A DNA stretch of 64,000 nt. Source: Marsupella aquatica (Eukaryota; Plantae; Marchantiophyta). Location: NCBI GenBank assembly GCA_973895155.1, contig OZ316896.1:8949539-9013538 (forward strand), read 5' to 3'. Numbering within the stretch: position 1 is the first letter of the stretch; each line of letters opens with the position of its first letter. The notes below the pieces were generated by a model. It did no database searches. It was given only the letters and a program-made list of their open reading frames with translations, and had not been told where the DNA came from. The position numbers and the translations under genes were made by a program. Of this stretch, positions 25,068 to 64,000 are shown piece after piece.

Positions 25068-25084
25068 AACCCCAATTTAAGGAA
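25068..25084 (+). repeat. Left TIR of element A
   Basis: AACCCCAATTTAAGGAA, the exact reverse complement of 47452-47468. Confidence 0.9.
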
Positions 25085-25863
25085 TACTGAAGTATTAGAT
25101 TAATTCCAATTTTATCTAAATATTATTAGTTAGTGAATGATCAACCTCTTTAACATTTGGTGGGATAGTCAAAAACTTCAAATGTTTTGTTGCAAGATCT
25201 TTATAACAATGCATCACTAAATGACATCAAGTACCTCTTGATCCATGCACAAATCCTTAATTAAACTGTCATTCATTATTTGTTTTAATTGTCTATTTAA
25301 TTACTATAGGGTTGAATACAAAAAAGATTGACACGCACCAGGGTGCGTGACCTACAATCATAGTAAGTACCACCCTTTAATTAGTTAGTTTCTTTACAAC
25401 AATTAATAGGATTGTTGTATATTACAATGTCTACTGGACATTCATTTGAATGTCAATAATATCATGCCTTAATATCACCAAACTAAGGCCCCACTAACTA
25501 ATATTATATCTTAAATAAACTAACCAACTAACTAACTTGTCTATTTAATTACTATAGGGTTGAATACAGAAAAGATTGACATGCACCAGGGTGGGGGACC
25601 TACAATCATAGTATCACCCTTTAATTAGTTAGTTTCTATTGCTTTGACTCAATCAGGCATGGAACCATATAAAATCAGAAATCATTGAAAGTTGAGTTCA
25701 CTTGAAGGTGTAACTATAATTATTATTTATTAATAGGATTGTTGTATATTACAATGTCTACTGGACATTCATTTGAATGTCAAAAATATCATGCCTTAAT
25801 ATCACCAAACTAAGGCCCCACTAACTAATATTATATCTTAAATAAACTAACCAACTAACTAAC

Positions 25864-28800
25864 TTAAATAGACAATAAGACTTGTCTAAACTTGAGTTCT
25901 CTGGCTTTGAGTTCTCGTGCTTTGAAACTCTCAGGAGGTTTATCTTTTGCTGGTCCCACATAATCCACTGTTGCCTCCAACTCACATGCCACATTTCGAT
26001 ATTCTGGTGGAACGTGCTCTCTCCATATTGATAAAGGCCAAAACCCGTATTCCAAGTTGTGTGCACCGTCAGGTTCATATTGCACCTGCTCACCCTGTAG
26101 AGTATCTACAATGTCATTCCAATAATTGATGAGAGTTGTCCAACGTCGCTTTGGTTCTTCCTCTTTTGTTCGCTTTAGAATAAACTCAAAGAATGAGACA
26201 TGCTTCTTCAACCCTGTCAGCACTTCAGGAAGCATTTTCAACTCCATCATTGGTAGCCGTTTGGGCACCCCAATTGGGATGTGAGGACTTTTGTCATCTT
26301 TCCATGACCACATTTCAATACCTTCCTTGGGTAACCATCCCTGATCAGTTGACTTCATTTTGTATTGGAAGCATGGCATACTATCATGACAAACATAGAA
26401 CCTAAACAGCCTGGGTTTTAAATGCCCCACCAATGCCTCAGGGCCCTTCAACATGAATGGAGCTAAGTAGCTTTTGAAATCCGGGACCTCCTGTAGAAAA
26501 TGTGGGACTGCATTGGGTGTCCTTGCTCTCATGAACAAGGACATTAACTCAGGCAATGAGTATGTGGGGTTATGCATCATAGACTCTGAAAAATGCCCAA
26601 ACATACCGTCAACGTCCTCATGAGTATGCCCAACCACCATAAAACCAAGATGAACCTCTTCAAACACCTCCCTTGCTGTCAACAATGACAAATAAGCCAT
26701 CATATATCTGTTCTTGTTGTCTGAGGCACAATTATCCAGTTATAACTTCAATACTCGTGGAAGGGGCCTGAACTTTGGTGCCTCAAGTGCTGCATCACAA
26801 TGTAACAATCTCAGAATGCTTTTAAATAAAACCCTAGTCAGACCCTAAACCCAATTTAGGGTTTAAACCCTATTAATGAAACCTTGGCTAGGAGGAGCAA
26901 CAACTACACAAAGTAGAGTGTCAGTGTGTGTGAGCTTATATTATTAAATAATAATAAATTAAAGGATTGTGAGTAAAGTACCTAGGCTTGAGATGTAGGC
27001 AATGTCATCCTCAAATGCTCTAAGGACACTTGCCTCCAAGATATCTTTTCTCCCAAAAAGGAGGTCTTTAAAAAGACTTGTCGAGTCTGGCCCCTCCACA
27101 AGTGATTTGATCATTGGATTTGGGTTTTCCAACATCCTTAGTATTGAATCAATTGACCCAATAGTGATGTTGACATCACCTGGCCACACTCCAACATGAT
27201 ATTGGGCTATGGCCTTGGGACCATGACCATGAGTAAGGATACCAGTGACAGTAATTGGGAACTTTTGGGCACCATCCACATGCTTAGGATTGAAGGGCAT
27301 TCTTGGGAGAGCTGTCTTTGAATGATCCATCTTATCATGAATAAGGCATAACACTTCCTTGGGACGATGGATGGACTCATATCTCCAGGTATGATAACAC
27401 ATTCTTTGCTGTGTGTGGTCTTGGTGATGTTCCTCCTCGTCACGCCTTAGGCCCTCTAACTCTTCCTTAGCTCCTGTAAGGTTTGCTTTCCGTTGAAGCA
27501 ACTCACTACAAGTTGTACACTTTGAAAAGTTGTTGCCCTTTTTGTGACGCGAGAACTCCCTGAAATACATCTGATGTAGATGACTCAAGGTGGGTTGGGA
27601 AATTGGAGGAAGACCAGCCTCCTTGTTGACAACATTAACCCTGTTTCTAATATTCTCCCAAGTAAGATTCGTTGGCAATTCCCTCAAAACCATCCTTGTA
27701 TTATCTGCCATGGTTCTCAACTTGGCTGGATGATGATCAGCTGCCTCCTCAATAATCTCTTTCATTGACATGAATGCTTGAGATACTTTCTCGGACATAC
27801 GCCTTTTTCCAACATTACCATGGGTACCTATGTTCATTCCAGCCATCACAGTCTTCTTCAAGGCATAAAATTGAGTCTTTCCTCTTGAATGAATGATTCT
27901 CCATGCCTCCAAGCACAATACTTTGCCCTCCACTGCTAGAATCCTTTCTCCAGTACCCAAGTGTATTGTATTTTTAATAGCCTTGATTTCCTCCTCCTTG
28001 CGCTTCACAAAAGATTTTGACCACCACTTTTGCCTAATTGCCATAGCCAAGTTGCGGTCCAAATATTGGCAACAATGTTCACTACAACAGTCCTTAGTGT
28101 TTATCAACAACACATCTTGACGCGCCAAAGATGTGTCTCTTCTAGATGTCTGGGAAGATGGACTCTTTCTTTTCCTACTTTTATGGACGTAGGACCGCTT
28201 GCCACTTGTTGGAGATGTGTTCCCTCCCACAGCTTGCCTGATGTTGTGGAAAGACAACAAGTTGCCATCCTTGGCAATGAGTTGGTCCATCGACCAAGCT
28301 TTTAAGCAATCTCTATGCTTCAGATGATCTATGGTAGCTCCCTCTACAAAATTGTTGATCAGAATTCCCACATGTGTATTCCCAAGGGTGACATCCCCAA
28401 GCTTCACTATAGGATCTAGAACATGTATAGTTGCCACTGCAAAAATCAACTTGTTCTCATCCACCACCTTTACAGGCATGCCCATCCACAAGGCCTTTGG
28501 TAAAACTACTTCCACACCAGACCGACTCTCATTATGGTTGTTCCCATCAGAATTTTGATTGACTGGATCTTGATCATCACCAACATTGCCAAACACATCC
28601 TCCGATTCCATGGGAGCTCGAAAAAGCTGATTCCTTTCCCATACAAGGTAACCCCCAATCATGTCCTTCAAAAGTTCGCCATCTTCGCATAGAATGGCCT
28701 CGTCAAAAACTTCCTCCAATAGAAGAAGAACTCTGTCCGCCCCAAGAGGAACATTGTGACAAACCCTGGAAGGATCAAGACTTATCATGCGACCTTTTCC

Positions 28801-28869
28801 AACCTGTTTCTCACGTATGCCTATAATAACTTGTCCGCCTTCCCTGATCTAGACTGTCGATGTCACCAT
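25864..28869 (-). pseudogene. DDD transposase, DUF7869/Sola-like (element A); one intron, premature stops, C-terminus truncated
   Basis: Motifs LIHDKMD, L*LDNCASDNKN, FMVVGHTHEDVD..F, CC..C and CTTC Zn-like motifs, and two N-terminal Tnp1/En-Spm-like repeats. Intron ~26981-26790 restores the frame. Stops at 28849-51 and 26740-42. Confidence 0.8.
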
Positions 28870-29890
28870 AATAATTATGATCCTGCACATCAGAGAATAT
28901 CACTGTAAGCGTACAGTCCTGTCACGTCCGTCAACTTCACTGCACTATCCTGTCACGTCGGTCAACAAGCAAAATGTAGTCAATGCACTGAACTGCACGC
29001 GACTGGTCGCGTGACCCTAGAGGTACCACACATACCGGCAATGACTACAATCGATTACGATCAATCATTTCACATCCACTCAGAAAAAATGAGTGGACAG
29101 TACCAGTTTACCAATGAGTGGACACTGGACAGTCAGTAACTACTGAGGACTGTAAGCAATAAGCGCCAGTAAAACGTCCGTGAACTGCATTGTCCTGTCA
29201 CGACCATCAACAAGTAAGCAGAATGAAGTCAATGCACTGTCCTGCATGCGACTAGTCGCGTGACCTTAGTCAGAGGGTGTAGGGATAATAGGGTCTACGA
29301 CATAGAAGCTAGAAGCCTAGGCCCAAACTCTAGCTCGTACTTGGTACTTCAGAAGTAAGATACGATTGCGCATGAGACAGTAAGATACAATTACAGATCT
29401 GAAGGCATCACACATAGTTACCGACAACAGATTATGCATGGTCAGTCAGTCATTTCAAGTGAATGAGAATGACTACAATTGATTACGAACAATCATTTCA
29501 ATTCCACTCAGAAAAAATGAGTGGACAGTACCAGTTTACCAATGAGTGGACACCGGACAGTCAGTAACTACTGACCCTCATAAGCAATCTCAGTACTTCA
29601 CTAGCAATCAGTATTCCCGGGGCGGTCGCCAAACGTGAAATTAAATGCAAAAATTGGAGGGCAACTGAACTTCCCGCCAATTCTAATACGCGCCAGTCAA
29701 ACGCGCACTCTCTTCTAGAAACCACTATGTACAGTGACTAGTGGAGACTAAACAGTATAAAGCATTGAGATGATCCCTACTGCTCATTCCCCCACGAATT
29801 CCACTTTCTGGCTACTGGATAATCTATTCGCACATCAGCTCTCTCATTTCCAATTCTTAGTCTCGGTCCGCATCCCTTGTTTGAAGGGCG

Positions 29891-30433
29891 ATGACTACTC
29901 CGCTGAGCTCAAAGAATGAGGATTTTCCGACGGATGATTCAGAAGATTCGACGTATCGAATTCGTGGTACTCCTTATAGAACGTGTCAGCGATGTAATAT
30001 AATGTTTACGGTGACTAAATCGGGTCAAATGTTTTGTGAGAGACGCCATTGTTCGCCACATTTGTCAATGGAAGATCAGATGGAGAGCAATCCGACAGAG
30101 ATGACTACAAAGATGGCACCAGGGGAGAAGTTAAAGGGCAAAGCCCTCGTCAAATCCGTTTCGGGGGGGGAGAAGTTGAAGGACAAAGCATGCGTCGAAT
30201 ACATTTCGGGTGAAGCAGCAGCAAACGCTAACACAGTCAAGAAGGAGGCCAAGAAAGTGGACGCTCCAAAGAAAAGGCAATTAGAGATGAACGAAGATTC
30301 TGATTTGTATTATAGAAAGAGCAAGCCGAGAAAATCTATGGACGTTAGGACTTGGGCAAAGGAAGAATTCCTGGATTCAAGGGAATCCACACCAGACACC
30401 GATGAGTGGATGCCTTCATCTTGGAATGACTGA
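29891..30433 (+). CDS. Hypothetical 180-aa element protein with Cys/His cluster (CQRC...CERRHC)
   Basis: Intact ATG-TGA ORF, TATA-like TATAAA at ~29756, basic K/R-rich C-terminus. Confidence 0.5.
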   Translation: MTTPLSSKNEDFPTDDSEDSTYRIRGTPYRTCQRCNIMFTVTKSGQMFCERRHCSPHLSMEDQMESNPTEMTTKMAPGEKLKGKALVKSVSGGEKLKDKACVEYISGEAAANANTVKKEAKKVDAPKKRQLEMNEDSDLYYRKSKPRKSMDVRTWAKEEFLDSRESTPDTDEWMPSSWND

Positions 30434-30679
30434 CTCGATCGAAGTCTACAATATTTTGAGTATTCGAAGATTAGATCTACAGATTCAAGAGTAGTTCAAG
30501 TTAGAACTTGTTATAGATACTGTGTAGCTTAATTTCGTCCCATGGAAAATAGTGTTCGAAAGACCAGGTCAGTTAAATTCCTGGATAGTGCTAGTGGATA
30601 TGGATTCCACATCCGAAGTCCTTCGGGACCGATGTAACCATTTTAGCAATCAAGGAAAAATCTTCCACGAGATTCCTCT

Positions 30680-32400
30680 GGCCTCTAAAACATTAACGCG
30701 ACCAGGCGAAGACGTTGGTTTTAAATTAGATTGCTGGCCAATTCTTTGGGCTATCGACTACAATAAACAATATAAAAAAGACCTGAGATAAATTGGTTCA
30801 CGCGACTGTACGCGTGATGAAGTACATGTGTAACCGAAAAAAGAGGTCATCCAACTAACAAGTTGAGATCAGTCAAATCTAAGAAATAAAGCGCGATTAC
30901 GTTTAAGAGTGCAAAGCTTTCGATGACCTCTAAAACATTAACGCGACCGGGCGCGTCATGATACAAAGACGTTGGTTTTAGAATAGATTTCTGGCCAATT
31001 TTCTAGGCTGTCGACTACAATAAACAATACATAAAAAACCTGAGATAAATTGGTTCACGCGACTTTGCGCGTGATGAACTACATGTGTAACCAAAAAAAC
31101 AGGTCATCCAACTAACAAGTTGAGATCAGTCAGATCTCAGAAATAAAGCGCGATTACGTTTAAGAGGGCAAAGCTTTCGATGACCTCTAAAACATTAACG
31201 CGACCGGGCGCGTGATGATACGAAGACGTTGGTCTTAGAATAGATTTTTGGCCAATTTTCTAGGCTGTCGACTACAATAATCAATACATAAATTGGTTCA
31301 CGCGACTGTGCGCGTGATGAACTACATGTGTAACCGAAAAAACAGGTCATCCAACTAACAAGTTGAGATCAGTCAGATCTCAAAAATAAAGCGCGATTAC
31401 ATTTAAGAGGGCAGACCTTTCGATGACCTCTAAAACATTAACGCGACCGGGCGCGTGATGATACGAAGACGTTGGTCTTAGAGTAGATTGCTGGCCAATT
31501 TGCTAGGCTGTCGACTACAATAATCAATACATAAATTGTTTCACGCGACTGTGCGCGTGATGAACTACATGTGTACCCAAAAAAATAGGTCATCCAACTA
31601 ACAAGTTGAGATCATTCAGATCTCAGAAATAAAGCGCGATTACGTTTAAGAGGGCAGAGCTTTCGATGACCTCTAAAACATTAACGCGACCGGGCGCATG
31701 ATGATACGAAGACGTTGGTTTTAGAATAGATTGCTGGCCAATTTTCTAGGCTGTCGACTACAATAATCAATACATAAATTGGTTCACGTGACTGTGCGCG
31801 TGATGAACTACATGTGTAACCAAAAAAACAGGTCATCCAACTAACAAGTTGAGATCAGTCAGATCTCAGAAATAAAGCGCGATTACGTTTAAGAGGGCAA
31901 AGCTTTCGATGACCTCTAAAACATTAACGCGACCGGGCGCGTGATGATACGAAGACGTTGGTTTTAGAATAGATTGCTGGCTAATTTGCTAGGCTGTCGA
32001 CTACAATAATCAATATAAAAAAGACCTGAGATAAATTGGTTCACGCGACTGTGCGCGTGATGAACTACATGTGTAACCAAAAAAACAGGTCATCCAACTA
32101 ACAAGTTGAGATCAGTCAGATCTCAGAAATAAAGCGCGATTACGTTTAAGAGGGCAGAGCTTTCGATGACCTCTAAAACATTAATGCGACCGGGCGCGTG
32201 ATGATACGAAGACATTGGTTTTAGAATAGATTTCTGGCCAATTTTCTAGGCTGTCGACAACAATATAAAAAATACCTGAGATAAATTGGTTCACGCGACT
32301 GTGCGCGTGATGAACTACATGTGTAACTGAAAAATCAGGTCATCCTCCTAACTAGTTGAGATCAGCTGGATCTGAGAAATGGACCTCGATTACGTTTCGT
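30680..32400. repeat. Tandem array 1 of element A: ~7 units of ~243-257 bp, two ACGCG-N6-CGCGT palindromes per unit
   Basis: CTCTAAAACATTAACGCGACC recurs at ~30683, 30928, 31184, 31428, 31671, 31914 and 32171. Confidence 0.95.
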
Positions 32401-33859
32401 TTCGCTACGCCGTCGACTACAATAAACAATACCAAAACGTACGGACAACTATAATTGAACGCCATACAATTTTAGACTAGAGAATTCATTCGGATCCTCT
32501 ACTAGTACTTCTGATACATTGCTTCTATATTGGACTTGAAACACGGATTGATCAAAATCGGAGTGTGGAATTGGACCATAACTTCATTGACTCAATTCAT
32601 GCATTGAATGCGTGATTTAAGGCAACTATTCTCCTCATTTATTGCGGAATTAATGCTCATTGATACTTACAAGCTATTCAGTTGCGTGTGGACTCAACGA
32701 TGTTGGCGGCAACCCTCCTCCCAGCAAAGCCTCTTCCTTCCAGCGTAGCCTCCTCCTCGTCCCAGCAAACTAATCCTCCTCCTTCGAACTCCAATTTCCT
32801 TGAGTATCATGACCGAATCCCACCACCAGAGAATGAAACCTTGTTGATCGTATCGAGATCAAAATCCTTGACCAGACAGTGATTTCAGACTAGCCGCACT
32901 TTGTTGGTCCGCTAGAATGCTTCGATGAATGAGGCAGACTGGAGGTTCTAAATCTTTTGTCGTCCCGCTTGATCGGATGTGCCCTCCCCAAGAATGGGAT
33001 ACAATAAGAACTGCGCCAGCGTTGCTTGAATGAGCTTCGCCTCCGCCTGGAATAGACGAATGATCCAATATGCTCCACCTCAAATGTGCCTTGGATCAGC
33101 CTCCACTGAGAGCCCAGCTAGTATCCTGGTCAGGAGAAACTGAAAATGAAGAATGATCCGTGAGCAATGAGATCAGTCTATTGACTCCATGAGGGATGTG
33201 TTCATCTTGACTCGATTTTGATTTTGAAAATTGGTTCAGTCTCCAGTCGTGAGAATCATTGTACAGGATTTGGCACGATAGCTTCTTGAGTTTTGAATTG
33301 AGTTGCTATTCAACGCGCGAATAATCATACGGATCCGGTGTTCTCCACTTCCAAAATGGATTGATTTTGAATATCGGTTCTCCCCGACCATGAGAATCGT
33401 TTGACGTTGTTTAGAGTTTGGGTTTGAATTGGCAAGATAGAGAGTGGAGTACGGATCCGGATCCGACGGTCTCCACTACCAAAATGGAATGATTTTGAAG
33501 TTCGCCTCACTCCGATCGTGAGAAACTTGTCGTTTGTTCAGATTTTGGATTTGAATTGGCAGATATAGTGAAGATACGGATCCGGATCCGGGGGTCTCCA
33601 CTAACAATCTATCGCAGTCGCATAATTACCGGTTTAAATTTCAAATTGGCGATCAAATAGAAATCTCCTTTACCGGAATCCTTTTGATTTTCCGTACTAA
33701 TCTTTTTTTCACGATTGCATAGTTTGTTGAGTCGTTGGTGGAGTGTACGGAGATCATCTGGAACCTTCCTGTCGCTAGGCTGTTATTAGGGTTATGCTAA
33801 AACGATACCCTAATTAGTCGTTCCTTAGTGTTGGCGCCCACGGTCTCGAGTTCACTGTT

Positions 33860-34740
33860 CATTGTTGTTGATTCTCTCTCCTAGACTTTCGCACGCCTGC
33901 TCTCATCGCTCTCGCTCTCGCTCTCGCTCTCACTCTCGCTCTCGCTCTCGCTCTCGCTCTCGCTCTCACTCTCGCTCTCGCTCTCGCTCTCGCTCTCGCT
34001 CTCGCTCTCGCTCTCGCTCCTGCCCTGGATTTCATTTTCATCGTTGCAGCTCGTTCGTTATGGTCAGGTGCTGGTCGGCGCGTTGCAGCTCTTAGTAGTT
34101 GTCGATCGTTTCGGTCAGGAGCTCGTTGGCACGTTGCAGCTCGCATTTACAGCTCGTATTCACTTCTAGTTTGCTCGAAGGGATTCTTAGGAGCTCGTTG
34201 GGTTTGTTGCAGCTAGTTTGTTGGGAGTGTTCGTATCAGCTCATGTCAGCCAATTTTAAGCTCATATCAACTCCATCAACGTGTTTCAACAGATCGAACT
34301 ACTTTTTGGCAGCTTGTTTCAGCTCCTTTCATTCATCATTCAGGTTTGTTTCAGCTCTTTCAATCTTCAGGTTTAGTGCGCTTTTATTCATGCTCAGTTT
34401 GTCTATCGACAACTTTGATTGTACTTCAGGAATAATCTTTTTAACTCGACATAATGAGTTCCATAGCATTAAGCACATGTTATTCAATTGGCAGCAGCGA
34501 AGCTCTATATAGAAGCTGTGTTATTGTTGCTTAGCATATTTACTTTCTGGAATGCCGCAGCAAGGTCTTCAAGTGCTTGGACGTCAATCTCTCAAACGAT
34601 TACAACACTTTTTCAGAATTCAGGTGCAATTTCTACATTTTCTGTTGGTGTTGATTGTTGTTTGCTAAAATTTCTCTTGATTGTTAAGCTGAGTTTGTCT
34701 GTAAACTCAAATATGTCTGAATCATACAAACTCACTAATT
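33860..34740 (-). pseudogene. Degenerate coiled-coil ORF ending in a (GAGCGA)n Glu-Arg microsatellite
   Basis: (CTCGCT)n at ~33905-34020 on the + strand. The minus strand upstream reads as E/K/L/Q-rich helical sequence with many stops. Confidence 0.4.
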
Positions 34741-35149
34741 AAAATACAACCTGAATTGTATTAAGTAAGTCATTACAAACCTGCACGCTGTGAAATTTAA
34801 TCATATAAACTCTCATGTTATGTGAATCTCATTACACTGAATCATTTAATTGACGAATACAACCAGTAGACTGCTAAATTGAATCATCTTAGCTGAATCA
34901 TTCTCTAAACTGAATTCCATGCAATCTGAAAACTTCTGATATATAATAGTTTCACAATGACAGAGCTCAAACATCTGAGTTATTGTAAAGTTCACGAATG
35001 AATACTAGTGTGCTTGAATCATTCAATAAATGCATCATTGCACTTTTCTAGTTCAAAAACTCATGCTTACTCGGATTTCCCTGTCCGTACGGGTCAGTAA
35101 TCACAGTTGTATCACTGTATTATCCTAGTGTCCAAAAGTGGTTTGAGCT

Positions 35150-36905
35150 GTTGACGCGACCAGTCGCGTGAGAAGATTGTGAGGTTCCATTTTAGGGTCA
35201 GTTGACGCGACCAGTTGCGTCTGAGGGAGCTCTCTCATTGACTGGTTCCGTTAGAGGAGGTATGGTTCCATTTAGGACCAGTCGCGTGTGAAGGAGACAT
35301 GATAGATTATTGAGCGCGTTTAGGGTTTAGGTTCAGTTGACGCGACCAGTCGCGTGTGAGGTAGCTCTCTCATTGACTTGTTCTGTTAGAGGTATGGTTC
35401 CATTTAGGATCAGTTGACGCGACCAGTCGCGTGTGAGAAGGAGAGGATAGATTATTGAGCGCGTACCATATCCAAATCTCCACAAGGAAGGTTCAGTTGA
35501 TATAGTTGTTTAGGTTTAGTTGATACGACCAGTCGCGTGTGAGGTAGCTCTCTCATTGACTGGTTCTGTTAGAGGTATGGTTCCATTTAGGATAAGTTGA
35601 CGCCACCAGTCGCGTGTGAGTAGGAAACAGGATAGATTATTGAGCGCGTATCATATCCAAATCTCCACAAGGAAGGTTCAGTGGATATAGTTGTTTAGGT
35701 TTAGTTGACGCGACCAGTCGCGTCTGAGGTAGGTCTCATTGACTGGTTCTGTTAGAGGTATGGTTCCATTTAGGATCAGTTGACGCGACCAGTCGCGTGT
35801 GAGAAGGAGAGGATAGATTATTGAGCAAGTACCATATCCAAATCTCCACAAGGAAGGTTCAGTTGATATAGTTGTTTAGGTTCAGTTGACGCGACCAGTC
35901 GCGTGTGAGGTAGCTCTCTCATTGACTAGTTCTGTTAGAGGAGGTAAGGTTCCATTTAGGATCAGTTGACGCGACCAGTCGCGTGTGAGAAGGAAACAGG
36001 ATAGATTATTGAGCGCGTATCATATCCAAATCTTCACAAGGGCGGTTCAGTGGATATAGTTGTTTAGGTTTAGTTGACGCGACCAGTCGCGTCTGAGGTA
36101 GGTCTCATTGACTGGTTCTGTTAGAGGTATGGTTCCATTTAGGATCAGTTGACGCGACCAGTCGCGTGTGAGAAGGAGGATAGATTATTGAGCGAGTACC
36201 ATATCCAAATCTCCACAAGGAAGGTTCAGTTGATATAGTTGTTTAGGTTCAGTTGACGCGACCAGTCGCGTGTGAGGTAGCTCTCTCATTGACTGGTTCT
36301 GTTAGAGGAGGTAAGGTTCCATTTAGGATCAGTTGACGCGACCAGTTGCGTGTGAGAAGGAAACAGGATAGATTATTGAGCGAGTATCATATCCAAATCT
36401 CCACAAGGGCGGTTCAGTGGATATAGTTGTTTAGGTTTAGTTGACGCGACCAATCGCGTCTGAGGTAGATCTCATTGACCGGTTCTGTTAGAGGTATGGT
36501 TCCATTTAGGATCAGTTGACGCGACCAGTCGCGTGTGAGAAGGAGGATAGATTATTGAGCGAGTACCATATCCAAATCTCCACAAGGAAGGTTCAGTTGA
36601 TATAGTTGTTTAGGTTCAGTTGACGCGACCAGTCGCGTGTGAGGTAGCTCTCTCATTGACTGGTTCTGTTAGAGGAGGTAAGGTTCCATTTAGGATCAGT
36701 TGACGCGACCAGTTGCGTGTGAGAAGGAAACAGGATAGATTATTGAGCGAGTATCATATCCAAATCTCCACAAGGGCGGTTCAGTGGATATAGTTGTTTA
36801 GGTTTAGTTGACGCGACCAATCGCGTCTGAGGTAGATCTCATTGACCGGTTCTGTTAGAGGTATGGTTCCATTTAGGATCAGTTGACGCGACCAGTCGCG
36901 TCTCT
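35150..36905. repeat. Tandem array 2 of element A: ~180-bp units (higher-order ~360-bp dimer) with ~20 ACGCGACCAGTCGCGT palindromes
   Basis: GTTGACGCGACCAGTCGCGT recurs at alternating ~75 and ~105 bp spacing. Confidence 0.95.
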
Positions 36906-47468: not shown

Positions 47469-47472
47469 TTAG

Positions 47473-51500: not shown

Positions 51501-52711
51501 ACCTTCACGCGGACGCGGTGACAATGCATTCCTTGTTCAGCATTCCAATACACGGAGAGCTCAGGCCTCTACACATCACCAGTCCCCAATACCGCATCTT
51601 GAGGAACAATGACGTGTTCATCATAGACGAGGCGAGCATGCTGACACCCAAACTGTTGCGTTGCGTCTCCACAAGACTACACGAGACACTCCAAGACGAG
51701 GACCGCTCATCCGACCCGTTCCAAAATAAGACGGTCATCCTGGTCGGAGACATGTGCCAATTGCCTCCGGTTTGCACCCACCACACCAACGACATATGCA
51801 GGTCGTGCCACCTCTCGTCGTTGCCATATTTTGAGACCATGCAGAAATTTCACCTCAGCACTGTGCTCAGACAGAGCATAGACCGGGAGTTCATGGAGTT
51901 CCTTAACAACATCCGCACAGGCCTCCCTACCCAAGAATCGATCGATGAGTGCCTGGGACGATGTTACGTGTCCAAACAAGAAGCCCATGATTTCATTGAC
52001 GCCTCGACGACCGTGATATGCACACATAGAGAAACAGTCGACAACTACAATGAACGGGCATTACGGAGATATTTTCCATCCCAAGAGATCGTGCCCGTCC
52101 CAATACTCACCAATGCCCCTTCAGACGAATCCACCCGACCTTGGATACAAGATCCCTCCTTCCACACACTGACGAACGTTGCAATCGGATGCAAGGTGAT
52201 TCTCACACACAACATCGACGTCTCCAAGCAGGCCGTGAACGGCAACGGAGGAATCGTGGAGAAAATCACTACAGAAGCCGAAGGCAAAATGTCGATTTTT
52301 GTGAGAATGTCTTCCAACCACTGCCTCGTAAAGATCAACCACTACCTCATAAAGATCAACCACAGGGTTCACGAGAACAAGTTCATCTCGGGACAGCAAA
52401 CCCATCGGAAATCCACTTTCCCTCTCATGCTTGGATACGCCATAACAGGTCACAAGAGCCAAGGTTGCACACTAGCGGGCAAGGTCGTGCTAGAAATAAA
52501 TAGTGCATTCACACCGGGATTGGTGTACGTTATGTTGAGTAGGGTCACAAATAGAGCATCCATGCCCATTGTTGGAGATCTTATGCCGCCGGACTTCAAA
52601 GTGTTCCACTTACCAATTCGTCGTGTTCAACAAGCAGATGTCGACCACCAAAGGCAACAAGGCAGCGAAGGCATCACAACAACAACGAGAAACGATGACA
52701 TGCGCAAATAG
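48563..52711 (+). pseudogene. Helitron2/Helentron-type RepHel (HUH Rep + Pif1 helicase), one frame with three premature stops
   Basis: CGMC...CVTC finger; GLPHFFLTLTC....WPE; YELQGRGSLHAH; YLLKYAIK; GNPGSGKT; IIDEASM; GDMCQLPPV; AITGHKSQG; YVMLSRV. Stops at 48749, 49118 and 49646, all in the same frame. Confidence 0.93.
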
Positions 52712-54045
52712 CAATCCGACGAGCGCTACTCCTACAACAGTTCAGGTAAACAGTGTCCACTTCATACTTCACATTGTTGATGCAAGCAATATATAATGAA
52801 ATGATGATACAAAAGTTGAAAGATTTATTAACATTGACGGGCACTATTGTTCTAACACATTGTTCACGTCTTTCCTGTGCAGCCCATGACAGCCGTGGAG
52901 ATGGCAAGGATGATCATGAGAGAGCTGTCGTCGGATGACTTCCGGACTGACGAGGAGGTAACGGCTAAACAAATTGCTTTCAGCAACGGTCTCGGAATCG
53001 AGACAACTGAGATGGTGAACGGGATCAAGAGGAGAGATCTGTCGAAGATGATTGAGGAGTGTCACCTGCTTATCAAGCGATTTACACGATAAATACGTAT
53101 TTACTCCTACTAAAATCGTTTGTTATCGTATGACGGGAACGTGGAGGGACACTATTAGGATTCTATTGCATGTAAGATGAGTATGTTTATTTCCGCTCCC
53201 GGAAATATAATTTTTGATCAAGTCTACCGACTAGCCCGCTCTGCTTTTGATCAAGTCCCATGGACTACGCCACACACACACTCCTACTGGTCGTCGGTGG
53301 AGTGTTGTCACCACCCCTCCCTACTCACATGGTTGACCAAACCGTGCAAGGATTCCTTAGACGTTTCTTAGGGAAAGAACACAATCGTGAACCAGAAAAG
53401 GTAACACCACACCAAAACTTGAGGAATCAAACCAAATCCATATCTTTTGGCAAAATCACTATATTCATTAAAACTGAAATTATAAAGGATATAGGGAAAT
53501 TTGGCGATTTAAAAACATAGTTTTAGGCATGAAATTTGTAAATTTGGAAGATGAAAAATGAAAATTCAAGCATCATTAAATGTAAATTTGGGGACAAAAA
53601 ATGAAATTTTGGGAAAATAAAATATTAAATTGGATGATATTAAAAAAAATTTGGGTGATAAAAGTGTTCATTTGGTTGGAAAATAGATAGAATCTAGTAA
53701 TAACATATAAGCTTGGATAGCATCTATATTCAAAACATTTAGCTTGAGTAAGATATCTAACTAAGCACCAATACAATGGAATGACTATAGTGTCTAGACA
53801 AAGTTAACTAGGATGATATCCAACCTACTAGAAGGAATGAAATGGCATCATTTTCTAGAATTAAAATATACTAAGACAAATAAAATAATAATTATAAGAA
53901 AGTCCATTCAATAGCTTTGAGAGATCATAGAGTATTAATTTGATTGTCTTGTTCTCTCACTTTAGACCAACGCATGGAAATCAACTCGACCCTCTTAATC
54001 ACAAGTCATTTGAGTGGAGACTTGTAACCTACGAGTTCTATCAAT

Positions 54046-57000
54046 CTACTCATCAATTATACCTTCCATGTAAATTTTGAGAGTTTTCAAAACATTCTTA
54101 GGAATTGTCAAACCTCTATCCATAATATTTTGTTCTTTAGCACCTGACTTAAACCCATACATTGCAGAATTTGCAAACTGCCAACTTTGAGTAACATTGT
54201 CAAACCCAGGATCCAGCTCCCAAGTCTTAGTGGTTTGAAAGCAACGTTCATATCGAACATCATCCTTTGCATCATACTTACCATGTTTAGGCCTCCACCA
54301 TTGTACTTGGAACATAGGAGCATTCCTAAGAGGAATGCTCTCAACAGACGTTGAAGAAGACCCTTCAATATGTTGCAAATATGTTGAGGGAACCTCATGG
54401 TTTGGATCCACACCACCCAAAGCTCGAACCAACCAGAAACGCCCTTTGCCGTTTTCCTGTTCCCATTCATCCTCTGGACATAAAAATACAAAGTGACCTT
54501 CTTGAATATCTTGTAGAGGAATCCAACATGCAGGTTCTCGCTCTTGTCGTGCACCAACAAAGGGTGCAGCTTGATCTTCCATCTCTTCCATGTACTCATT
54601 TTGAAGGTCCATCATCTCTGGATTTTGAGAAGGTTCACTTGACGACTGAGATGTCCCCAAAATCATCTTGTAACCTATGCCATGGTTAGTCTTTGGCCAA
54701 AAATCAGTTGTCAATGACAAATGTCTTTCCCCCTCCCCTTCTATTGTAAGTTCCTCGGACAGTGCTTGCACAAGATTCTCCCAATATTTGACCAGAGGAA
54801 ATCTCTCTTTATATGCTGCAGAGGTCTCATCCTTACAACTTTTCTTCAAGAAATCAATATAGCGATTAAGGAATGGGATGATTTCTCCAGCCTTCTTTTG
54901 TACATCCTCAGATATAGGTTTTGCAAATGGTTGGCCTTCCGGTAAAATGAGCGCATTTGTGATGGGATCAGTTCTCCAAATGGACCTCCCCATTGCCAGA
55001 AGCCAAGGTTGCTTGACATGTGCTTTATATTGATACACTGGCACATTATCTCTCATGGAGAAAAGAAATGCCACTGGTTTTGAGTGACCTTCTATCTCTT
55101 TCACCTGGAAAGTTTTCAAATACTCCTTGTAAGATGCAACCTCTTGAATCAATCGTGGTACAGGATGAATGCTTTCACACTCCCAAACCTCAGCCATCAA
55201 CCCCAAGAGGGTAGACACCTCTTTGTATCTGACCTATTTGGATACTTGAGAAAATAATTCATCCACGTCTTCATGGGTGTGGCCAACCATGAGGAATGAC
55301 ATTTGCACAATTTCAAACACCCCCTGCTAACAAGCTAAGTGCAAAATGCCATCACATATTGATTTTTGTTATCTTTCCCTGAATTGTCCATCTACAACGT
55401 TAGGTGCCTTGGTAAGGGCTTGAAAGAGCCCCTAGTAGTCTCAGGATCATCCTTAGAACCAACATCCACTGTGCTTGACTTTTTAGTCTCCTGACCATCT
55501 TCAATGCCTTGAAATCGAACAATTGAAACATTTTTGGGTTCCAAGTAACCGGCCAGAAATGCTTCAAAGTCTAGAAGGGACTGAAATATTGGCCTAGTTG
55601 CATTCCAATTCAATCCCTCAAGAAGGTCTCCAGTTTTGTCTCCTGTGTAATCTTCCAAATCTCGGAGGCATTTGGCCAAAGATGTCACGGTAAAGTCTGC
55701 ATCTCCAGGCCAAAGTCCAGTCAAACTGAAATGTGCATACACTCCAGGATCTCTTCCATGGGTTAACATCCCAGTAAGAGCAATAGGCAAAGGCTGACCA
55801 CTACCAGAGAGGGATTTTGGAGTGGGGACCAACCTGGGGATCCAAGTCTTGGCTTGATCCATCTTATCGTGAATAATGCAAAGATAGTTTTGAGGATCCT
55901 TCTTTGCAAGAACCCTATGAGCATAGTAAACATATTTTCTTGACATTTGTTCACGAAGATGTCACGCTCTTTTCTCTTCAATCTCTGCACGCTCTTTTTT
56001 TCTCTTCTCCCGCATCAATTGATCTTTGAACTCAGTGCAAAATGTGCACTTGGCAAATGCACTTCCCTTGTGAAAGTCAAAATTATCAAATGAGTTTTTC
56101 CAGATGTTGTACATAGTAACTTCAGTAACCTTAGCAAACCCATCTAATTCCATCTTGGTAAACACCTCTTGGAAAATCTCCTTCTTAGTAAAACAAGATG
56201 GGAGCCGATATTCAATAGTGTCAGTGCCGTTGGACCCACCATAGGGAAGATGTGGCATTGGTTCCCCATTTTGGATTAAAATGGACTCCAACAAGGCGCG
56301 AGCGTGCAAAGTGCTTGATCGTGTCTTCCGTTGTCCCTGATTTCCATGGAAACCAATTGTGCAACCAGCTTCGTATTGATTTTTGTAGTCATAGTACTTT
56401 GTTGTACTGAACCCATGCATTTTAATAAATGCATCTTTACAAACCACACGTCCCTTTAGAACAAAAAATCCCTTTCTCTTGACTTGCTCCTCTCTACACC
56501 CAAAGAGACTAAAGATGTGACTTGTTTTGTTGTCACTTGACATTCCATGGTATTCCCTCCTCATTGCCTCTAAGTCCTCCCTGGGCATGTTCAAGCAACA
56601 CTTCAGCTTGCAACAACCTTCTCTTTGGATGGAATCAATGGACTCCTCGTTAATTTTCAAAAGTGCCCTCGACTCCAAATGCCTTTTCTTCCTCTCCTCA
56701 AGATCAACTTTTGTCCTCCTAATGAAATTGTATGGTCTTTTTGTAGGTTTACCATCACCATCCGAATCCGGATCGCCCTTAGTTCGACCCGACTCCATCC
56801 ACTTCTCTGAAACTTCCTCAAGGATATCCCCAAGAAACCTTTGAGACGAAATCAATAGAAGGGATTTGATTTCCCACCTCACCAAGCCAGGGGTACCAAC
56901 ACGGATATTTGGAAATAATCTGGGTTCATTGATATTCACAACAGCAACACCAACATGATCTGCACCAAGAAGTTCATCGTCAACGGCACCTGTTTCAAAT

Positions 57001-57761
57001 GGGACCGTGATAACACCTGTTGCAACCTTTCGACAACGAGAAGCTTCATACAAATCAACCTCCTCTGCCATCCAGTTGGAACGTAGTGTAAAATCTTTTA
57101 ATGGAAGATCATTGAAAATATTTGAACTACCAAACACGCCAAAATCTCGAAGAGTGCCCTTTCTAGAAACATGCGCAACATCCCAGATAACCCAGGTATG
57201 CAAGGCCTCTTCTATTGTATCAGCTCCAGGGTGCGAGTATGGCAATTTTTGATTTCCCTTAACAATATCAGATATTCTTATACTGATGCGACCAACCCCG
57301 AGTGTTTCAGTATGACAAATATCCATCGGATTTGTCTTGAAAACAACTCCATTTGCAACCAACTGATCAAAAATGAACATCTGAACTTCATCTCCTTCCT
57401 TGAACACATCCTCTTCAACCCTTGCATCAATTTTGGATTTATCATTTCCAGCATCTCCAGCCAAAGAGAAATCATCGACATTGATTCTTCGGCGCTGAGT
57501 TGATAACCTCAAGTATGCCAATGCACAATCCCAAATCATGCAGGAGTCAATTGCCTCAGCCAATGTAGAAAATTTGGGCGAAGGAAATGGAAGTTGACGC
57601 GATCCATCAAAACACTTTTCGATCAATACCCCAATTCGATTGTCCCCTAGACAACTGTTCTATATAGTATCCTGGGGGTCAACCTTTTGAACTATCCCAA
57701 TTGCCGTTTCAAATCCATCGATCACCAATGACACTTCATCCCCTCGTGTAAAATTGATCAT
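54046..57761 (-). pseudogene. DDD transposase, DUF7869/Sola-like (element B); several stops and a frameshift
   Basis: IIHDKMDQAKT, L*MDNSGKDNKN, FLMVGHTHEDVDELFS, GCCKLKCC, FAKCTFC, and three N-terminal Tnp1-like repeats. Stops at ~57660, 55962, 55392, ~55336 and ~55235; 1-nt deletion at ~55322. Confidence 0.85.
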
Positions 57762-57887
57762 GATAGCGGACTATCTGTATTCAAATAAAGTTAGAAATTG
57801 TTAAGTTCCCCATGTTACAATCATGTTTCAAAATCTGGACTCTCCTCCAAAAAATATTGTAAAATCACTCAAAACCCTAAATACATT

Positions 57888-58220
57888 CAAGTCGGGTCAG
57901 AATTATTTCGACCCTCCTCCAACATTATGTCTTGAAATGATTGAATTGACTAAACATTTACAAGTCAGGTCGGAATTATTTCGACCCTCCTCCAACAATA
58001 TGTCTTGAAATGATTGAATTGACTAAACATTTACAAGTTGGGTCGGAATTATTTCGACCCTCCTCCAACAATATGTCTTAAATGATTGAATTGACTAAAC
58101 ATTTACAAGTCGGGTCGGAATTATTTCGACCCTCCTCCAACAATATGTCTTAAAATGATTGAATTGACTAAACATTGATAAGTTGGGTCTGAATTATTTC
58201 GACCCTACTCCAACTATTAA
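57888..58220. repeat. ~73-bp tandem array (x4-5) with an imperfect palindrome GGGTCGGAATTATTTCGACCC
   Basis: Units at ~57891, 57964, 58037, 58109 and 58182; an inverted partial copy at ~58310-58333. Confidence 0.9.
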
Positions 58221-59377
58221 GTTGAAATTATGTCAAAACTATTTGTGAAACTATCTTGCTTATGCTTTTATATACCAATTTAAAATGCTAGTTAAGATGA
58301 CATAGTCAGGTCGGCACGAAATAATTCCGACCCACTTCTAGAAACTATGTTAGTAATCACATAAAGGGGTACAGTAAGTTCTACACATTCTAGACTGTGG
58401 ATAAAGGTCTAGAATGAGTAAAATATATGACCTAGAACCTAATGTGTAAATCTTAATCTAGGTTTGGCTTAAAGGTATTGAATTAGATGTAGTTGAGCTA
58501 GTACTTCTAAGATAAATAAATAAAATCACTAACCTGCTCCGCAATATATCTCTGTCCACCCTTGTACAAGCTAAATGGGTACCTTGGATGCCAGCATTGT
58601 AACTCTTAGCACCACAGTGCTCACCAGTGCCCTTACTAAACCTTGCATTCAACCATGCGGACCTAAACAAGGCACTCGGACAGAGGAGAGTCAGTGATCG
58701 TACCAATCACTGTCTAAATGACAATGAACCAAAAAATGGATTGTGGGAGGTCTATACTCAGTTTGAGAGGCAAAAAGCCCGCACATTACCCAGCACACAA
58801 GTGGACACCAACAGATCGGGCACGGGTGGATGAGGCACGCACCCAGCACACAAGTAGACATCGGATATGGTGTCAGCCAATCACTCACGAGTGATAGGTG
58901 AGTTGCGAGCACACACCGCTGACAGCTCGGAAGTTTAAAATTGGTAGGTGAGTCGCGAGTGGTCGTGAGTGGTCACACCATCGGTGACTCACGATCACAT
59001 GCACCGAGGAGGGTCTCCATCATTGGCGCGCATTGATGCCTCCGTACCCTCTCGGATCCTTGCCTCCTCGGACTCCTCGCTCGCAGGGGGTATAGGAAGG
59101 CAGGCCTTGCGCTTGAGGCCTCATTTCCTTGCCTCCCTCTTGCCTCCTCTCTCATCTCCTCACTCCTTGCCTCCCTCTTGCCTCGCTCTAGGGATTTTGT
59201 TTTTGCCTCGCTCTTGGGATTTGTTTTCCGCCTCGCTCTAAGGCTTTTATTTTTGCCTTGCTCCCTTCCCTTTTGGGTCGCTCCCTCGATCATTGTTTGC
59301 CTGTTAGTGCCCTCTTGCAGCCTGTGGCATTCTCCATTGCTGCCACATGTCATCTTAAATCTCACGCGCCCCTTACA

Positions 59378-62300
59378 ATGTCTACTTCCTCCAGTTCTGA
59401 AGCTTCCACCACCTCCGCCAGTTCTCAAGAGTCATTGAACTTCAATTATAACTCTCCGTATGAATATGACCCTGAAGACCCGGATGTCCAAAAATTGGTT
59501 AACAATGCGTTGGAGGCGTCAAAGAAAGCCCAGTTAACTTTTCCACGTAAGGCACCACCTGCTTCAACTTCTTGCCTCGCCCTAAGGGCGAGGCAACTTT
59601 ACTTTAATTTGGATTTCAAACTTCTTATTAGGAAAATTTCTATATTCCTTTGCAGTCGCCTCGCCCCAAGGTCGAGGCGACGTCTACTTCATTCTAGATT
59701 TCTTGTTGCTCCGAAGGCGTATTGGACCTTGTATCTTACATTAATAAAGGATCTTTAGCTATATTCTATTTTTTGCCTCGCTCTTGGGGCGAGGCGATGT
59801 CGTCTGCATTCCTCAAATGTAGTCTGCATTCCCAGAAGTTGCCTCGCCCTTGGGGCGAGGCGATGTTATCTGCATTCCTAAATGTTGTCTGCATTCCCAG
59901 AAGTTGCCTCGCCCTTGGGGCGAGGCGATGTCCTCTACATTCCTAAATGTTGTCTGCTTTCCCAGAAGTTGCCTCGCCCTTGGGGCGAGGCGATGTCCTC
60001 TACATTCCTAAATGTTGTCTGCTTTCCCAGAAGTTGCCTCGCCCTTGGGGCGAGGCGATGTCCTCTGCATTCCTAAATGTTGTCTGCTTTCCAGAAGTTG
60101 CCTCGCCCTTGGGGCGAGGCGATGTTGTCTGCATTCCTAAATGTTGTTTGCTTTCCTAGAAGTTGCCTCGCCCTTGGGGCGAGGCGATGTCGTCTGCATT
60201 CCTAAATAATGTTTGATTGCTTGGATGAGGTGGCAGGGCTAATTGCACTAGGAGCAAAGAAGATTTTGCAATCTTCTATTTGTCGCCTCGCCCCAAGGGC
60301 GAGGCACCTTGAAAGTTTTCCACATGTCAATGTTAAACTATGATGTTGACCATTTTGTTTTCAATGTTTCTTACCAGGAAAAAATCTTGAGAAGCCGGAG
60401 TTAAATATTATGGACGAGGATATCAAGGACTTTGTTTTCCCTGACCAAGATACTCCAGGATTTAGATGGGCACTAGAAGTTGGGGTGTTGGCGGAAGGTA
60501 GTCTCTTGATTTGTGTCAAGGGCCTCACAAGTCAATTGAATGACCGCAAGACAATTGTTACTCTAGGTCCAGTCGTCCTTGTGAACACAGAAAACAACCG
60601 CAATGCAACGATTATTGTTGAGTCCAATGAGAAATCTCAGTGGATGAGACTTCTAGTGCCAATAAAACTCTACTCGACTTTACTGAATGTTGAGTGGATG
60701 GCTCGATTGGAGATAAGCGTAGCTGATATGGGATTCTTCCCAGATGGAGTAACAATTGATCAGATGTTTGAGAAGACGCGTTCTCAAATAAGTGGAGTTG
60801 ACCTAGTGTTTGGATTTCTCTACGTAAAGAAGCACATGCATGACAATGCGGACAGTGTGGACCCTCCGTCTACTTGGATAGTTCAAAGGATGATTGATAA
60901 GGCACATTTTTCATACGAGCAAGCAATCGACAAGAGTTTCATTTTTTGTCCAGAGTTTCAAGAGGCCGCGTGCCGGACGTGGATTTCAGAGATGAAGAAA
61001 AAAGAAGCAAAGCATAAGGCAAAGGAGAGAAAGAAGACAGTGGAAAGAAGTGCGCAATCAAAGACAGAGAAGAAACGAAAGCTTCAAGAGCCAGTTGTTC
61101 AACAAGAGAAACAATCTGGGAGTTCACGCCGTAAGAAGATGGCTAAAAAAAATGAAGATGATGAGGGCCCCCAAAAAAAGCAGACAAAGAAGGCAAAGGT
61201 TGCGAAATCAAAACCAATGTCAGGGTTGACTTCAAACTTTGTCTTGCATCCAGAGGATGATGTGTCCGACAGAAGGACCCAAAGAAGATGATGTGCTCAA
61301 AGGCCAAGAGGTTTTGCGTAATATTGAGCAGTATTATACTTTTGGCATCCGCGAAGTTTTTGATATTCTTGTAAAAAGTATTAATCCGCCATCGGCCGTT
61401 TTTGTATATCGAATGTTCAATCTTTCGCATGCAATGGAGATATCAAAGTCTATGATGAAAAACCCTGGACAGGAACCACAAGTTGCTGATTTGATTCCGT
61501 ATTGCGAGAGCACTAAACAGTTGCTTCATTATGACAACACACCTCAGGATAGGAAAGAGTTTTTGATTGGTGTGAAGAAGCATGAGATCCAATTCCTTGC
61601 CATCAGTGGCCAGCATTCTGCAAGAGCTGCCCAATGGATCCAAGGGTGGGCCGAGACTGACGCCAAGCTGACAGATCTTGCCAACAAACTAAAGTATAGG
61701 AAAGCAAGGATCCTATCTGACCTCACTCCGAAGACAATTTTGGTTGAGCATTCAAGTTTATCGAATGCTGTCAATGATACTATGCAATTTAAGTCTTGTT
61801 TTTTGGAGACTATTGTTCATGCACGAAGGCAGTTTGAGGAGTGCGGGAAACCGCCGCGTCCAGGGATTGGGACCAATCAAAATACAGACAGGAAAAACTA
61901 TCAGGTACATGTTGGAGCAACGCAAACTATTCTTGATCCGCTTTGTTTAAAGATTGTCAATGGTAGAGGTTTGCCTCGCCCCAAGGGCGAGGCTGCCTTT
62001 TCTTGTTTTCCTTGGTTAGAAGATTAAAGCAAATGTTTGCCTCGCCCTCAGGGCGAGGCAACCTAGACTAGTCTCTCTAAGAATAATTCCCTAGTTCCGT
62101 TTTAGTCAATTGCGGTTAGATGTAGAGGTTCGCCACGCCCTTGGGGCGAGGCGGCTTAGCCTGTTTCAAACATAGGTATAAATTTTCTAACATATGCATT
62201 GTACCCTGAAACTAATGTCAAGTCCATTGGATATGCAGGATTGGTTTGCCCTGGCAAAGGTTACAATGGGGAAGTCAAGCCTAAAGAGCATTTATTGGTT

Positions 62301-64000
62301 ACTTTTTGCCGAAGATGAGCTCTTTGAATTATGGCGGAACGTGTGTGCAAAATGGTTGAGTGGGAAGCTCCAAGACAGGGCTGGTGGGTATGGAGGGCCA
62401 AGACCCCCAAAATTGATCACTCCCGGTACCTTTCGATGCTTTGAAGGAGAGATTAGTAGCAAACAAATAATTGAGATCTTGAAGGATGTTGAAGAGGAGC
62501 GTGTCTTGCTGAAGAAGGATATCACCAACAAATTAGAGCTTGTCGCAATGGGAGACTTGGCCCTTACAATCAAGATAATGTCCAAATTGAGAACAATCAT
62601 TATTGGCTATTTCATGGAAAAGTATCGTGAGAAGTTTCCTGTTGGCACATCTTGGGAGTCTCTGGTGATATTGTTGCCTTCCTTGAAATCTGAGCTTGAG
62701 ATGACAAAATTGAGGAGAGCAACGGGTGAGGTTTACCTCAACAATTCATTGAAGAAGAATGTGGTCAAGGAGAGTTTCCCACAAAGTCTGATGGTCAGAC
62801 TAGATGGGTTGTATTGTAAAGAATTTGGTGGGATTGGTCGTTCTCGCACGGAGCCTTTCTTGACATTTTTTAGTGAGAATTTGATGAAGACGATCATGCC
62901 GGAAATGCTACAAGAGCCTTCGCCTTTGTGTCCTCTTGCCATTGTTGACTTCAGTAGGCTCCGACAACATGTTTGGACCGATGCTGAAATTATTGCATTA
63001 CTGCAATACATTGTGGATCTTCCAAGAAATCCAACAATTGTTGTTGTCATGACTGTGCATCCGGGGCCACTTGCTGCAAACATTTTGAGTGCCCTTAGGA
63101 AATTGCAACATGAAAAGGGAATGGACATCCACGTCGACTACGGGAGCTATCGACGGAGTGATACACCAGTTCCAGAGGGCTTACTTTTCAGTTGTGGTAT
63201 GGAGGAGATAATCTTTGCAGGAATCACCACTGAGGAGAAATTTGATTGGAAGCAAGTGTTCAGGCCTGGATTTAATTGCCAATTTTCTTACAATTCGGCG
63301 ATCGACCCTGATTTCCAAGTGGAAGACAAGACGGAGAAGCGAGATAAGAATAAGAGTAAGACAAGTAAGGAGACAGAGACTGAGTCAACTTTGGCATTTC
63401 ACATTGGAGATTTCTTACGAAAGGCTCCCATGTTTGAGATGGTGGGAAGTAGAGGTGGCTTTGTGAATATTCACGCTAAGCCAAAATGTATGCTGCAGAG
63501 TATTATTGAATTTTTTTCGGCTGAAGGGGAGACTATACTTGACTTTTTCTCGGGAGGACAGGTTATGAAGGTGTCATTGTTGTGTTTCAGAGAATGCTTT
63601 GCGTATTCAGACACTGAGGATGAATATGATTTCACTCAGGCATATGGAAGGGTTCTCTGCGAGAAAGTTCCTTCCATAATGAGTGACCGGATGGGCGGTT
63701 CCAAATTTGGTAGAGCCCGCGATGGGGTTTCCGAGCATGTTGGTGCCAAAGAAGGCGTAGACCAGGGCGAAGATGATATTGAGGAAGGAGAATTGGGTCA
63801 CGACACAGACGACAGGGTCACCCAAAATTTGGATGAACGTGGAACACAAGTGGTAGGTATTCCCTACTTTGGTGTGGGGTTGGCTGATGTTGTGGGTCGA
63901 CCTGAGGGCGACCCACCAAGAAATCCCTTTGCCGGTGTAGAGAATTGGATGCACCAATTGGACCCAGATCTTACATCGTCCACATTGGACGCACATTGGA
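59378..64000 (+). CDS. Element B ParB/Srx-like + beta-class N4C/N6A DNA-methyltransferase-fold protein (spliced, runs off the window, frameshift at ~61270)
   Basis: Frame-preserving introns 59547-60377 and 61905-62238. FLAISGQH at ~61595. Exon 62239-64000 is open (absent from the ORF track) and encodes VNIHAKPKCMLQIIIEFFSAEGETILDFFSGG...R.C at ~63465-63600. Confidence 0.75.
59770..60205. repeat. 65-bp tandem array (x~7) in intron 1, each unit carrying GCCTCGCCCTTGGGGCGAGGC
   Basis: Palindromes at 59775, 59841, 59906, 59971, 60036, 60100 and 60165. Confidence 0.95.

Follow-up and report, generated by a model that had tools for sequence, protein, structure and literature searches.

Private palindromes and a ParB-like accessory protein in giant liverwort transposons: a candidate non-catalytic anti-silencing system

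Two diverged giant transposons in the liverwort Marsupella aquatica each carry a CG-rich palindrome of their own, and the locus raises the question of which protein reads these sites, and to what effect. We analysed 64,000 nucleotides of contig OZ316896.1 (the window), to which all coordinates and all motif, CpG and gene counts refer; the transposon family concerns positions 25068-64000. The elements are called A and B, and their palindromes motif A, ACGCG-N6-CGCGT, and motif B, GCCTCGCCC-N3-GGGCGAGGC. The reading we favour, to which sequence analysis lends a probability somewhat short of one half, is that the ParB-like protein of each element would bind that element's private palindrome as a dimer and keep the DNA free of host CG methylation, without transferring methyl groups itself. 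The features on which this reading turns are the following.

25068-47468 (22,401 bp): element A, complete, with termini AACCC...GGGTT, a terminal inverted repeat (TIR) and a target site duplication (TSD)
53410-64000: element B, running beyond the window on the right, left end a candidate
25864-28848, minus strand: transposase of A, DUF7869 (PF25273, expectation value E = 1.6e-31), with motifs HDKMD, LDNC and GHTHEDVD
54046-57659, minus strand: transposase of B, DUF7869 (weak), with a Transposase_23-like repeat (PF03017, E = 0.03)
38808-43697, plus strand: ParB-like gene of A, inferred exons 38808-40046, 40155-41459, 41560-41881 and 41984-43697
60410-64000, plus strand: gene of B with ParB-like (SGQH), helical and beta-class methyltransferase-fold parts
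30707-32397: array 1 of A, 243-bp period, motif A twice per unit
35154-36901: array 2 of A, 183/367-bp period, carrying motif A (ACGCGACCAGTCGCGT)
37544-47384: eight dispersed motif-A copies in the right arm, at 37544, 38742, 40103, 41920, 44647, 45668, 46465 and 47369
59574-60305: motif-B cluster, including a 65-bp array (59773-60207), upstream of the ParB-methyltransferase gene of B

The initial annotation had read the whole of 25068-64000 as one family with a common layout. The layout stands, since A and B alike have a minus-strand DUF7869 transposase, central arrays and a plus-strand spliced gene, and the transposase and the ParB-like accessory gene are the only genes seen in both. The family consists of A and B themselves, however, and not of the retroelement-like DNA and the Helitron (48752-52711) that separate them. 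At the DNA level the likeness between A and B is nearly nil, amounting to a single 35-bp match.

The same annotation held that each palindrome is absent from the other element, and this is borne out by systematic counting. All 42 copies of motif A (31 exact, 11 with one mismatch) lie at 28997-47369, inside element A, and all 13 copies of motif B (10 exact, 3 with one mismatch) at 59574-62132, inside element B. Motif A has no copy in the left flank (1-25068), in the Helitron region between the elements or in element B, motif B has none elsewhere in the window even with three mismatches allowed, and Markov shuffles (30 per region) yielded neither. The motifs are 16 bp (A) and 21 bp (B) long, and the spacer of motif A is fixed, being 6 in 31 of 31 exact copies, with no copies at 14 other spacer lengths tested. 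In an unbiased scan for spaced palindromes, no other palindrome of A recurred in as many unrelated contexts as motif A (11), and no other of B in as many as motif B (7); the motifs are therefore more than the unit of an array. We infer that they are putative protein sites: a single strand carries them in both orientations, and in the best copies a centre of 1-2 nt is flanked by arms of 7 or 12 bp, so that, together with the fixed spacing, a DNA dyad for a dimeric protein fits better than an RNA hairpin. Near the left end of A, at 25332-25349, there is also a symmetric variant, ACGCA-N6-TGCGT, with two mismatches, one per arm.

The placement of the dispersed copies is equally regular. With exon edges in the right arm of A inferred from splice signals (four of them approximate), exactly one copy falls into each of 8 of the 11 short non-coding gaps, which are introns or spacers; the gaps total 1,203 bp and contain all eight copies, whereas the 9,298 bp of coding DNA contain none (p roughly 1e-8). 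Between the two arrays of A there are further repeated units with GGATCCGGATCC and a (TCGCTC)19 microsatellite (33327-33607, 33906-34019).

If the palindromes attract protection from methylation, a trace might be left in CpG content, for which some further features are needed.

29885-30433, plus strand: small Cys/His-containing open reading frame (ORF) of A, no family assigned
36877-38732, plus strand: three tandem F-box-like ORFs of A (Pfam E = 0.001-0.02, under the curated cut-offs)
43704-47158, plus strand: Ulp1 SUMO-protease domain of A (PF02902, E = 2e-21), then three NIF/FCP1-like phosphatase exons (PF03031, E = 8e-11, 2e-9 and 4e-10)
48752-52711, plus strand: Helitron Rep/PIF1 helicase, outside the family, with neither motif A nor motif B inside

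Counted at synonymous-type positions, and with the F-box ORFs outside the pooled count for A, CpG stands at 20/199 in the transposase of A versus 159/400 in its ParB, Ulp1 and NIF genes (p = 5e-15). Against background, the transposase is depleted about 4-fold (12/112 versus 144/328) and the other three genes are not (92/237 versus 231/586). The contrast in B is weaker and runs in the same direction (34/289 versus 55/257, p = 0.003). The pattern fits, and does not prove, long-term protection of the palindrome-bearing part of A, with methylation in silenced copies.

Turning to the accessory protein, the gene of A encodes, in order, an N-terminal domain, a ParB-like domain (GGQH), a helical region, an eroded C-terminal domain and an acidic tail with EAE repeats, and is damaged by one in-frame stop and one frameshift. 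That of B has a first exon at 60410-61904 (frameshift near 61260), an intron at 61905-62238 with three motif-B copies and a second exon from 62239; the splice join matches the Calypogeia gene model P0113, and in the relative P0110 both halves of the B-type protein form a single ORF. The homology of A to the family rests on its ParB-like and helical parts (helical E = 4e-5); P0002 is 63% identical to A over the ParB-like part, and in a tree built from the helical region, with 15 of 20 rows retained, A sits on a long, unsupported branch. A search with exon 2 of B returned 106 clusters at 50% identity, and one with the ParB part 4 Calypogeia proteins in 7 matches; the organisms named among 30 relatives looked up were Riccia sorocarpa and Calypogeia fissa. 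In one Riccia relative, P0092, an NIF domain is fused to the methyltransferase-fold protein. By tblastn, neither P0110 against phages nor P0113 against plasmids gave a match. Queries with the ParB part, the methyltransferase part and the transposase found no loci of relatives in viral contigs, genome contigs or a first metagenome scan, and a second metagenome scan found one 1.8-kb contig, the first 400 bases of which, judged by eye, contain no A- or B-type palindrome.

The identity of the ParB-like part emerges from several weak but converging signals in sequence and model comparisons. Profiles match DndB (E = 0.03) and ParBc_2 (E = 0.07) weakly; the best viral structural match in Foldseek is a phage protein named ParB/Sulfiredoxin, aligned full-length over 707 columns, with a Spo0J-like match at E = 0.025; and Atlas neighbours include a ParB_N cluster (0.91, 32% of members). 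On the other side, the ParB-part profile gave chance matches only among PDB sequences, and searches of NCBIfam and PHROGs matched no ParB family. In the P0110 model the predicted local distance difference test (pLDDT) score is low in this part, and structure searches against solved chains were dominated by the methyltransferase domain, the ParB and helical parts being barely covered. Residues 65-235 of P0110 also resemble eukaryotic clusters of Cnidaria and Ascomycota (DUF3723), a hint that eukaryotes may have a broader class of these domains.

The methyltransferase fold was judged on the model of P0110 (57-row alignment, pLDDT 78), which comprises a complete permuted beta-class amino-methyltransferase domain, with Z = 17.3 to CcrM (root-mean-square deviation 4.1 over 217 residues) and Z = 16.2 to M.RsrI; a profile comparison with M.RsrI gives E = 8e-9. 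The S-adenosylmethionine (SAM) loop motif DFFSGG is conserved in the B-type family, in a loop one residue shorter than that of M.RsrI. The catalytic motif [DNS]PP[YFW], by contrast, occurs in none of 120 family proteins, a set that includes many fragments, while the control phage enzyme is positive, and the 31 of 57 aligned rows that span the catalytic site all keep only the Asp, the first of motif IV (a column identity inferred from the model). Because the DPPY-type motif is absent and only this Asp is kept, the B-type domain is probably not an enzyme.

Why the accessory protein should be the reader follows from two considerations: bacterial ParB proteins bind palindromes, and apart from the transposase only this gene occurs in both elements. 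The mechanism we envisage is that each element keeps its private palindrome in its non-coding DNA, on which its likely ParB-like protein, fused in B to the predicted-inactive methylase fold, would dock as a dimer. The bound protein would act without methyl transfer, by occupying the CG-rich sites or by recruiting host demethylation, as VANC and TnpA do. Protein and site would co-diverge, so that each family activates only itself. For VANC of the Arabidopsis VANDAL elements, the accessible text of PMC5735166 describes family-specific motifs in introns, intergenic DNA and tandem repeats, with proven binding and demethylation. A VANC-like reading fits our elements through the placement of motifs in introns, spacers and arrays, the fixed dyad spacing, the two orientations and the CpG footprint in A, and in both systems, here with two families, a family-specific motif accompanies a diverging accessory protein. 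The differences are that VANDALs are Mutator-like, that their motifs are non-palindromic and 8-9 bp long, and that they have experimental proof of binding and demethylation. The original suggestion was that such pairs mark or protect the element's own chromatin; protection retains its place, but a mark made of methyl groups is improbable, since the family lacks the catalytic motif throughout.

A number of observations weigh against this reading. The ParB-methyltransferase gene of B is itself CpG-depleted (25/152 versus background 131/304, p = 6e-9) with motifs nearby; codon junctions of the first F-box ORF of A, which adjoins the densest array, are likewise poor in CpG (3/25 versus 32/70); and the Helitron is undepleted without any palindrome (112/152 versus 309/395), so an absence of depletion has other causes too. 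Ten of the 11 one-mismatch copies of motif A are CpG transitions, from which it follows that these sites are methylated at times. The protein assignments proposed at the outset also hold in part: the methyltransferase fold is clear for B, but the C-terminal half of A scores -1.8 bits against the family methyltransferase profile, below the best of 200 shuffles (2.1); and the ParB likeness, for all its convergence, is weak by any single test, with hhalign to phage ParB domains giving E = 0.012 and a probability of 3.5%, and the Arg of the nucleotide-binding motif G-x-[HR]-R, invariant in 8 of 8 phage ParB rows, replaced in a family that reads G-Q-H-[ST]. Finally, the protein-motif pairs number no more than two, and transposases can themselves drive sequence-specific hypomethylation, as the accessible part of a preprint reports (10.64898/2026.08.24.746577).

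This last point leads to the alternative that survives best, though we regard it as improbable: the transposase, via N-terminal TnpA-like (Transposase_23) repeats, would be both binder and regulator, and the ParB-methyltransferase protein would do something else. The transposase too occurs in both elements in diverged form (21-39% identity), with Transposase_23-like repeats discernible by eye at the N-terminus in A and the weak PF03017 match in B. Spm/AtMu1 elements provide, in the available text of that same preprint, a proven model of transposase-driven hypomethylation, with transposases and TnpA acting sequence-specifically. Furthermore, a copy of motif A stands some 100 bp short of the right end of A, and the symmetric two-mismatch variant, at 25333, is near its left end. 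Most motif sites, however, are internal, clustered around and inside the ParB-like gene rather than at the ends, and B offers a better candidate site for its transposase:

57888-58214: array of B with 73-bp units containing the imperfect palindrome GGGTCG-N9-CGACCC, in the region 57888-58330 upstream of the transposase gene

This second palindrome, overlooked in the initial annotation, might be bound by the transposase or by a second factor. An in-frame stop interrupts both transposases at one shared codon, right before the second catalytic motif LDNC (26740-26742 in A, 55392-55394 in B); at the stop of A, every public contig reads another base (4 of 4 runs). A modestly higher transition/transversion ratio over the transposase in public contigs, about 1.7-1.9 against 1.2-1.4 (X2, X4), is confounded by coding constraint and was not used.

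Rather less probable still is that the palindromes are sites of host transcription factors, gathered by each family for its expression. The ACGCG half-site of motif A presumably resembles the CGCG box of CAMTA factors, the motifs sit in introns and upstream of genes, and CG-rich cis elements can hold DNA unmethylated without any element protein. It would then be difficult to see why two related elements should have such different motifs, 16 and 21 bp long and strict in dyad spacing, each excluded from the other element, and why neither is present in the 25 kb of host and retroelement DNA on the flank.

We consider it quite unlikely that the palindrome-bound protein works as an active N4-cytosine or N6-adenine methylase of non-canonical type and so marks the element, a role of the kind proposed for the Ectocarpus protein discussed below. 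The entire beta-class fold is kept in a high-confidence model, the SAM loop and the first Asp of motif IV (31/31 rows) are conserved, and Marchantia has genuine N4-methylcytosine enzymes, according to the available text of 10.1101/2021.02.12.428880. Yet no family member has the PPY part that holds the flipped base, the SAM loop is short by one residue relative to M.RsrI, and erosion has left no recognisable domain in A, a family with high-depth contigs of about 99% identity over the transposase. Equally slim are the chances that the motifs work in RNA, as hairpins or splicing signals, or have arisen neutrally through tandem amplification. Copies do occur singly in short introns or between a stop codon and the acceptor that follows, and most copies are array units, but the two orientations on one strand, the tight-centred best copies, the G-to-A variants that break pairing and the 11 and 7 unrelated contexts all argue otherwise.

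What kind of elements A and B are can be approached from their ends. Element A has a 17-bp TIR (25068-25084 and 47452-47468) and is flanked by the 4-bp TSD TTAG (25064-25067 and 47469-47472; one insertion only), and its empty site is found in public contigs as well as in a paralogous copy of the flank near 47640-47660. The candidate left end of B, at 53411, matches that of A at 13 of 17 positions. With its 4-bp TSD and AACC-type inverted termini A has Sola1-type features, the end of B being a candidate, and both elements are likely Sola1-type giant DNA transposons. The LDNC...KN stretch of the transposase is reminiscent of Sola, and Sola1-1_PPa is presumably a family of the moss Physcomitrella. 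Public contigs from 4 runs of 3 studies span nearly all of A, and those over its transposase are of high depth, with many near-identical pieces at about 99% identity to the copy in the window, which fits a young multi-copy family (contig depth being no copy number). The A and B copies are both disrupted by stops or frameshifts.

Some neighbouring features deserve mention. The three NIF/FCP1-like exons of A, each with a splice acceptor before it and a stop at its end, resemble alternative terminal exons of the Ulp1 gene. The Helitron, possibly a recent acquisition, encodes its Rep/helicase in an open frame of 1020 aa, is rich in GC at third positions and shows no CpG depletion. At 8122-10359 there is a single-exon armadillo-repeat gene, probably of the host.

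The initial annotation further stated that this combination had no description, which is wrong, because giant elements with ParB and methylase have already been published from algae. In Ectocarpus, Sola1-1_Ec32 is a 21.5-kb element with a 4-bp TSD and termini AACCG...CGGTT, the transposase of which has Repbase Sola1-1_PPa as best match and the opposite-strand gene of which encodes a 1104-aa ParB and N4/N6-methylase protein, proposed to bind and modify its own element (PMC12477816, accessible text). Our elements are similarly giant (22.4 kb for A), with a 4-bp TSD, AACC-type termini and an opposite-strand gene, which in B has ParB and methyltransferase parts and in A the ParB-like and helical parts only. 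In the alga, unlike here, the methyltransferase is presented as a predicted enzyme, where ours lacks the catalytic motif; its TIR is 282 bp against 17 bp in A, and the Ulp1, NIF and F-box-like genes are extra in A. The comparison is between descriptions of the elements, and the accessible text reports no palindromic site. Red-algal giant Plavaka elements of 17-19 kb with PAG2/PAG3 (Bostrychia preprint, 10.1101/2025.02.11.637652, main text) likewise have a ParB-like accessory gene beside tandem inverted-repeat arrays and, in the cassette, a PF01555 methylase, and have been hypothesised to modify themselves. They differ in having an EnSpm/Plavaka transposase, and two distinct genes for the fusions of ParB with a 2-oxoglutarate oxygenase and of the methylase with SET; this comparison is with the main text, and the supplements may describe family-specific repeats. 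In the accessible text of both algal papers, self-binding is proposed without a test (PMC12477816, 10.1101/2025.02.11.637652).

Outside transposons, phage fusions of ParB_N and N6_N4_Mtase such as M.PhiCh1-I have the same order, ParB and then a beta-class methyltransferase, with a C-terminal motif match at E = 4e-7. These fusions, which keep DPPY and G-x-H-R and are without the helical insert of about 200 aa, are the probable ultimate source. ParB-terminase loci and other ParB-methylase links have been catalogued (PMC4738411, in the part available); PMC4455052, PMC5751038 and PMC12885004 contributed nothing decisive. Among eukaryotes, Marchantia MpDN4MT1 and bdelloid N4CMT (Z = 15.0 for the latter) share the beta-class fold, but they are active host enzymes with an SPPY-type motif, and the available preprint text on MpDN4MT1 makes no mention of ParB. 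Literature searches, with subscription papers and bioRxiv supplements out of reach, returned no description of the liverwort family, of private palindromes, of one-per-intron placement, of the loss of the catalytic motif or of a CpG footprint, and no publication on DUF7869 or on giant liverwort Sola transposases. The gene combination and the idea of self-binding are thus already known from algae; what is added here is a liverwort family, a probably dead methylase, private palindromes and a CpG footprint.

One could also speculate more broadly, at odds below those of the binding model itself, that a phage-derived ParB-methylase fusion in liverwort Sola1 transposons became a catalytically dead, sequence-specific anti-silencing reader, with more than 100 diverged variants each using a private palindrome in a parS-like code of self-protection and together forming a natural library of programmable shields against CG methylation. 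Two concrete protein-site pairs with built-in reciprocal controls make the published algal hypothesis testable, in a plant group that has CG methylation and a transformable model, Marchantia, and they shift the expected mechanism from the writing of a methyl mark to non-catalytic reading. If true, land plants would have a second VANC-like system of independent evolutionary origin, from which epigenetic tools with sequence specificity could be drawn.

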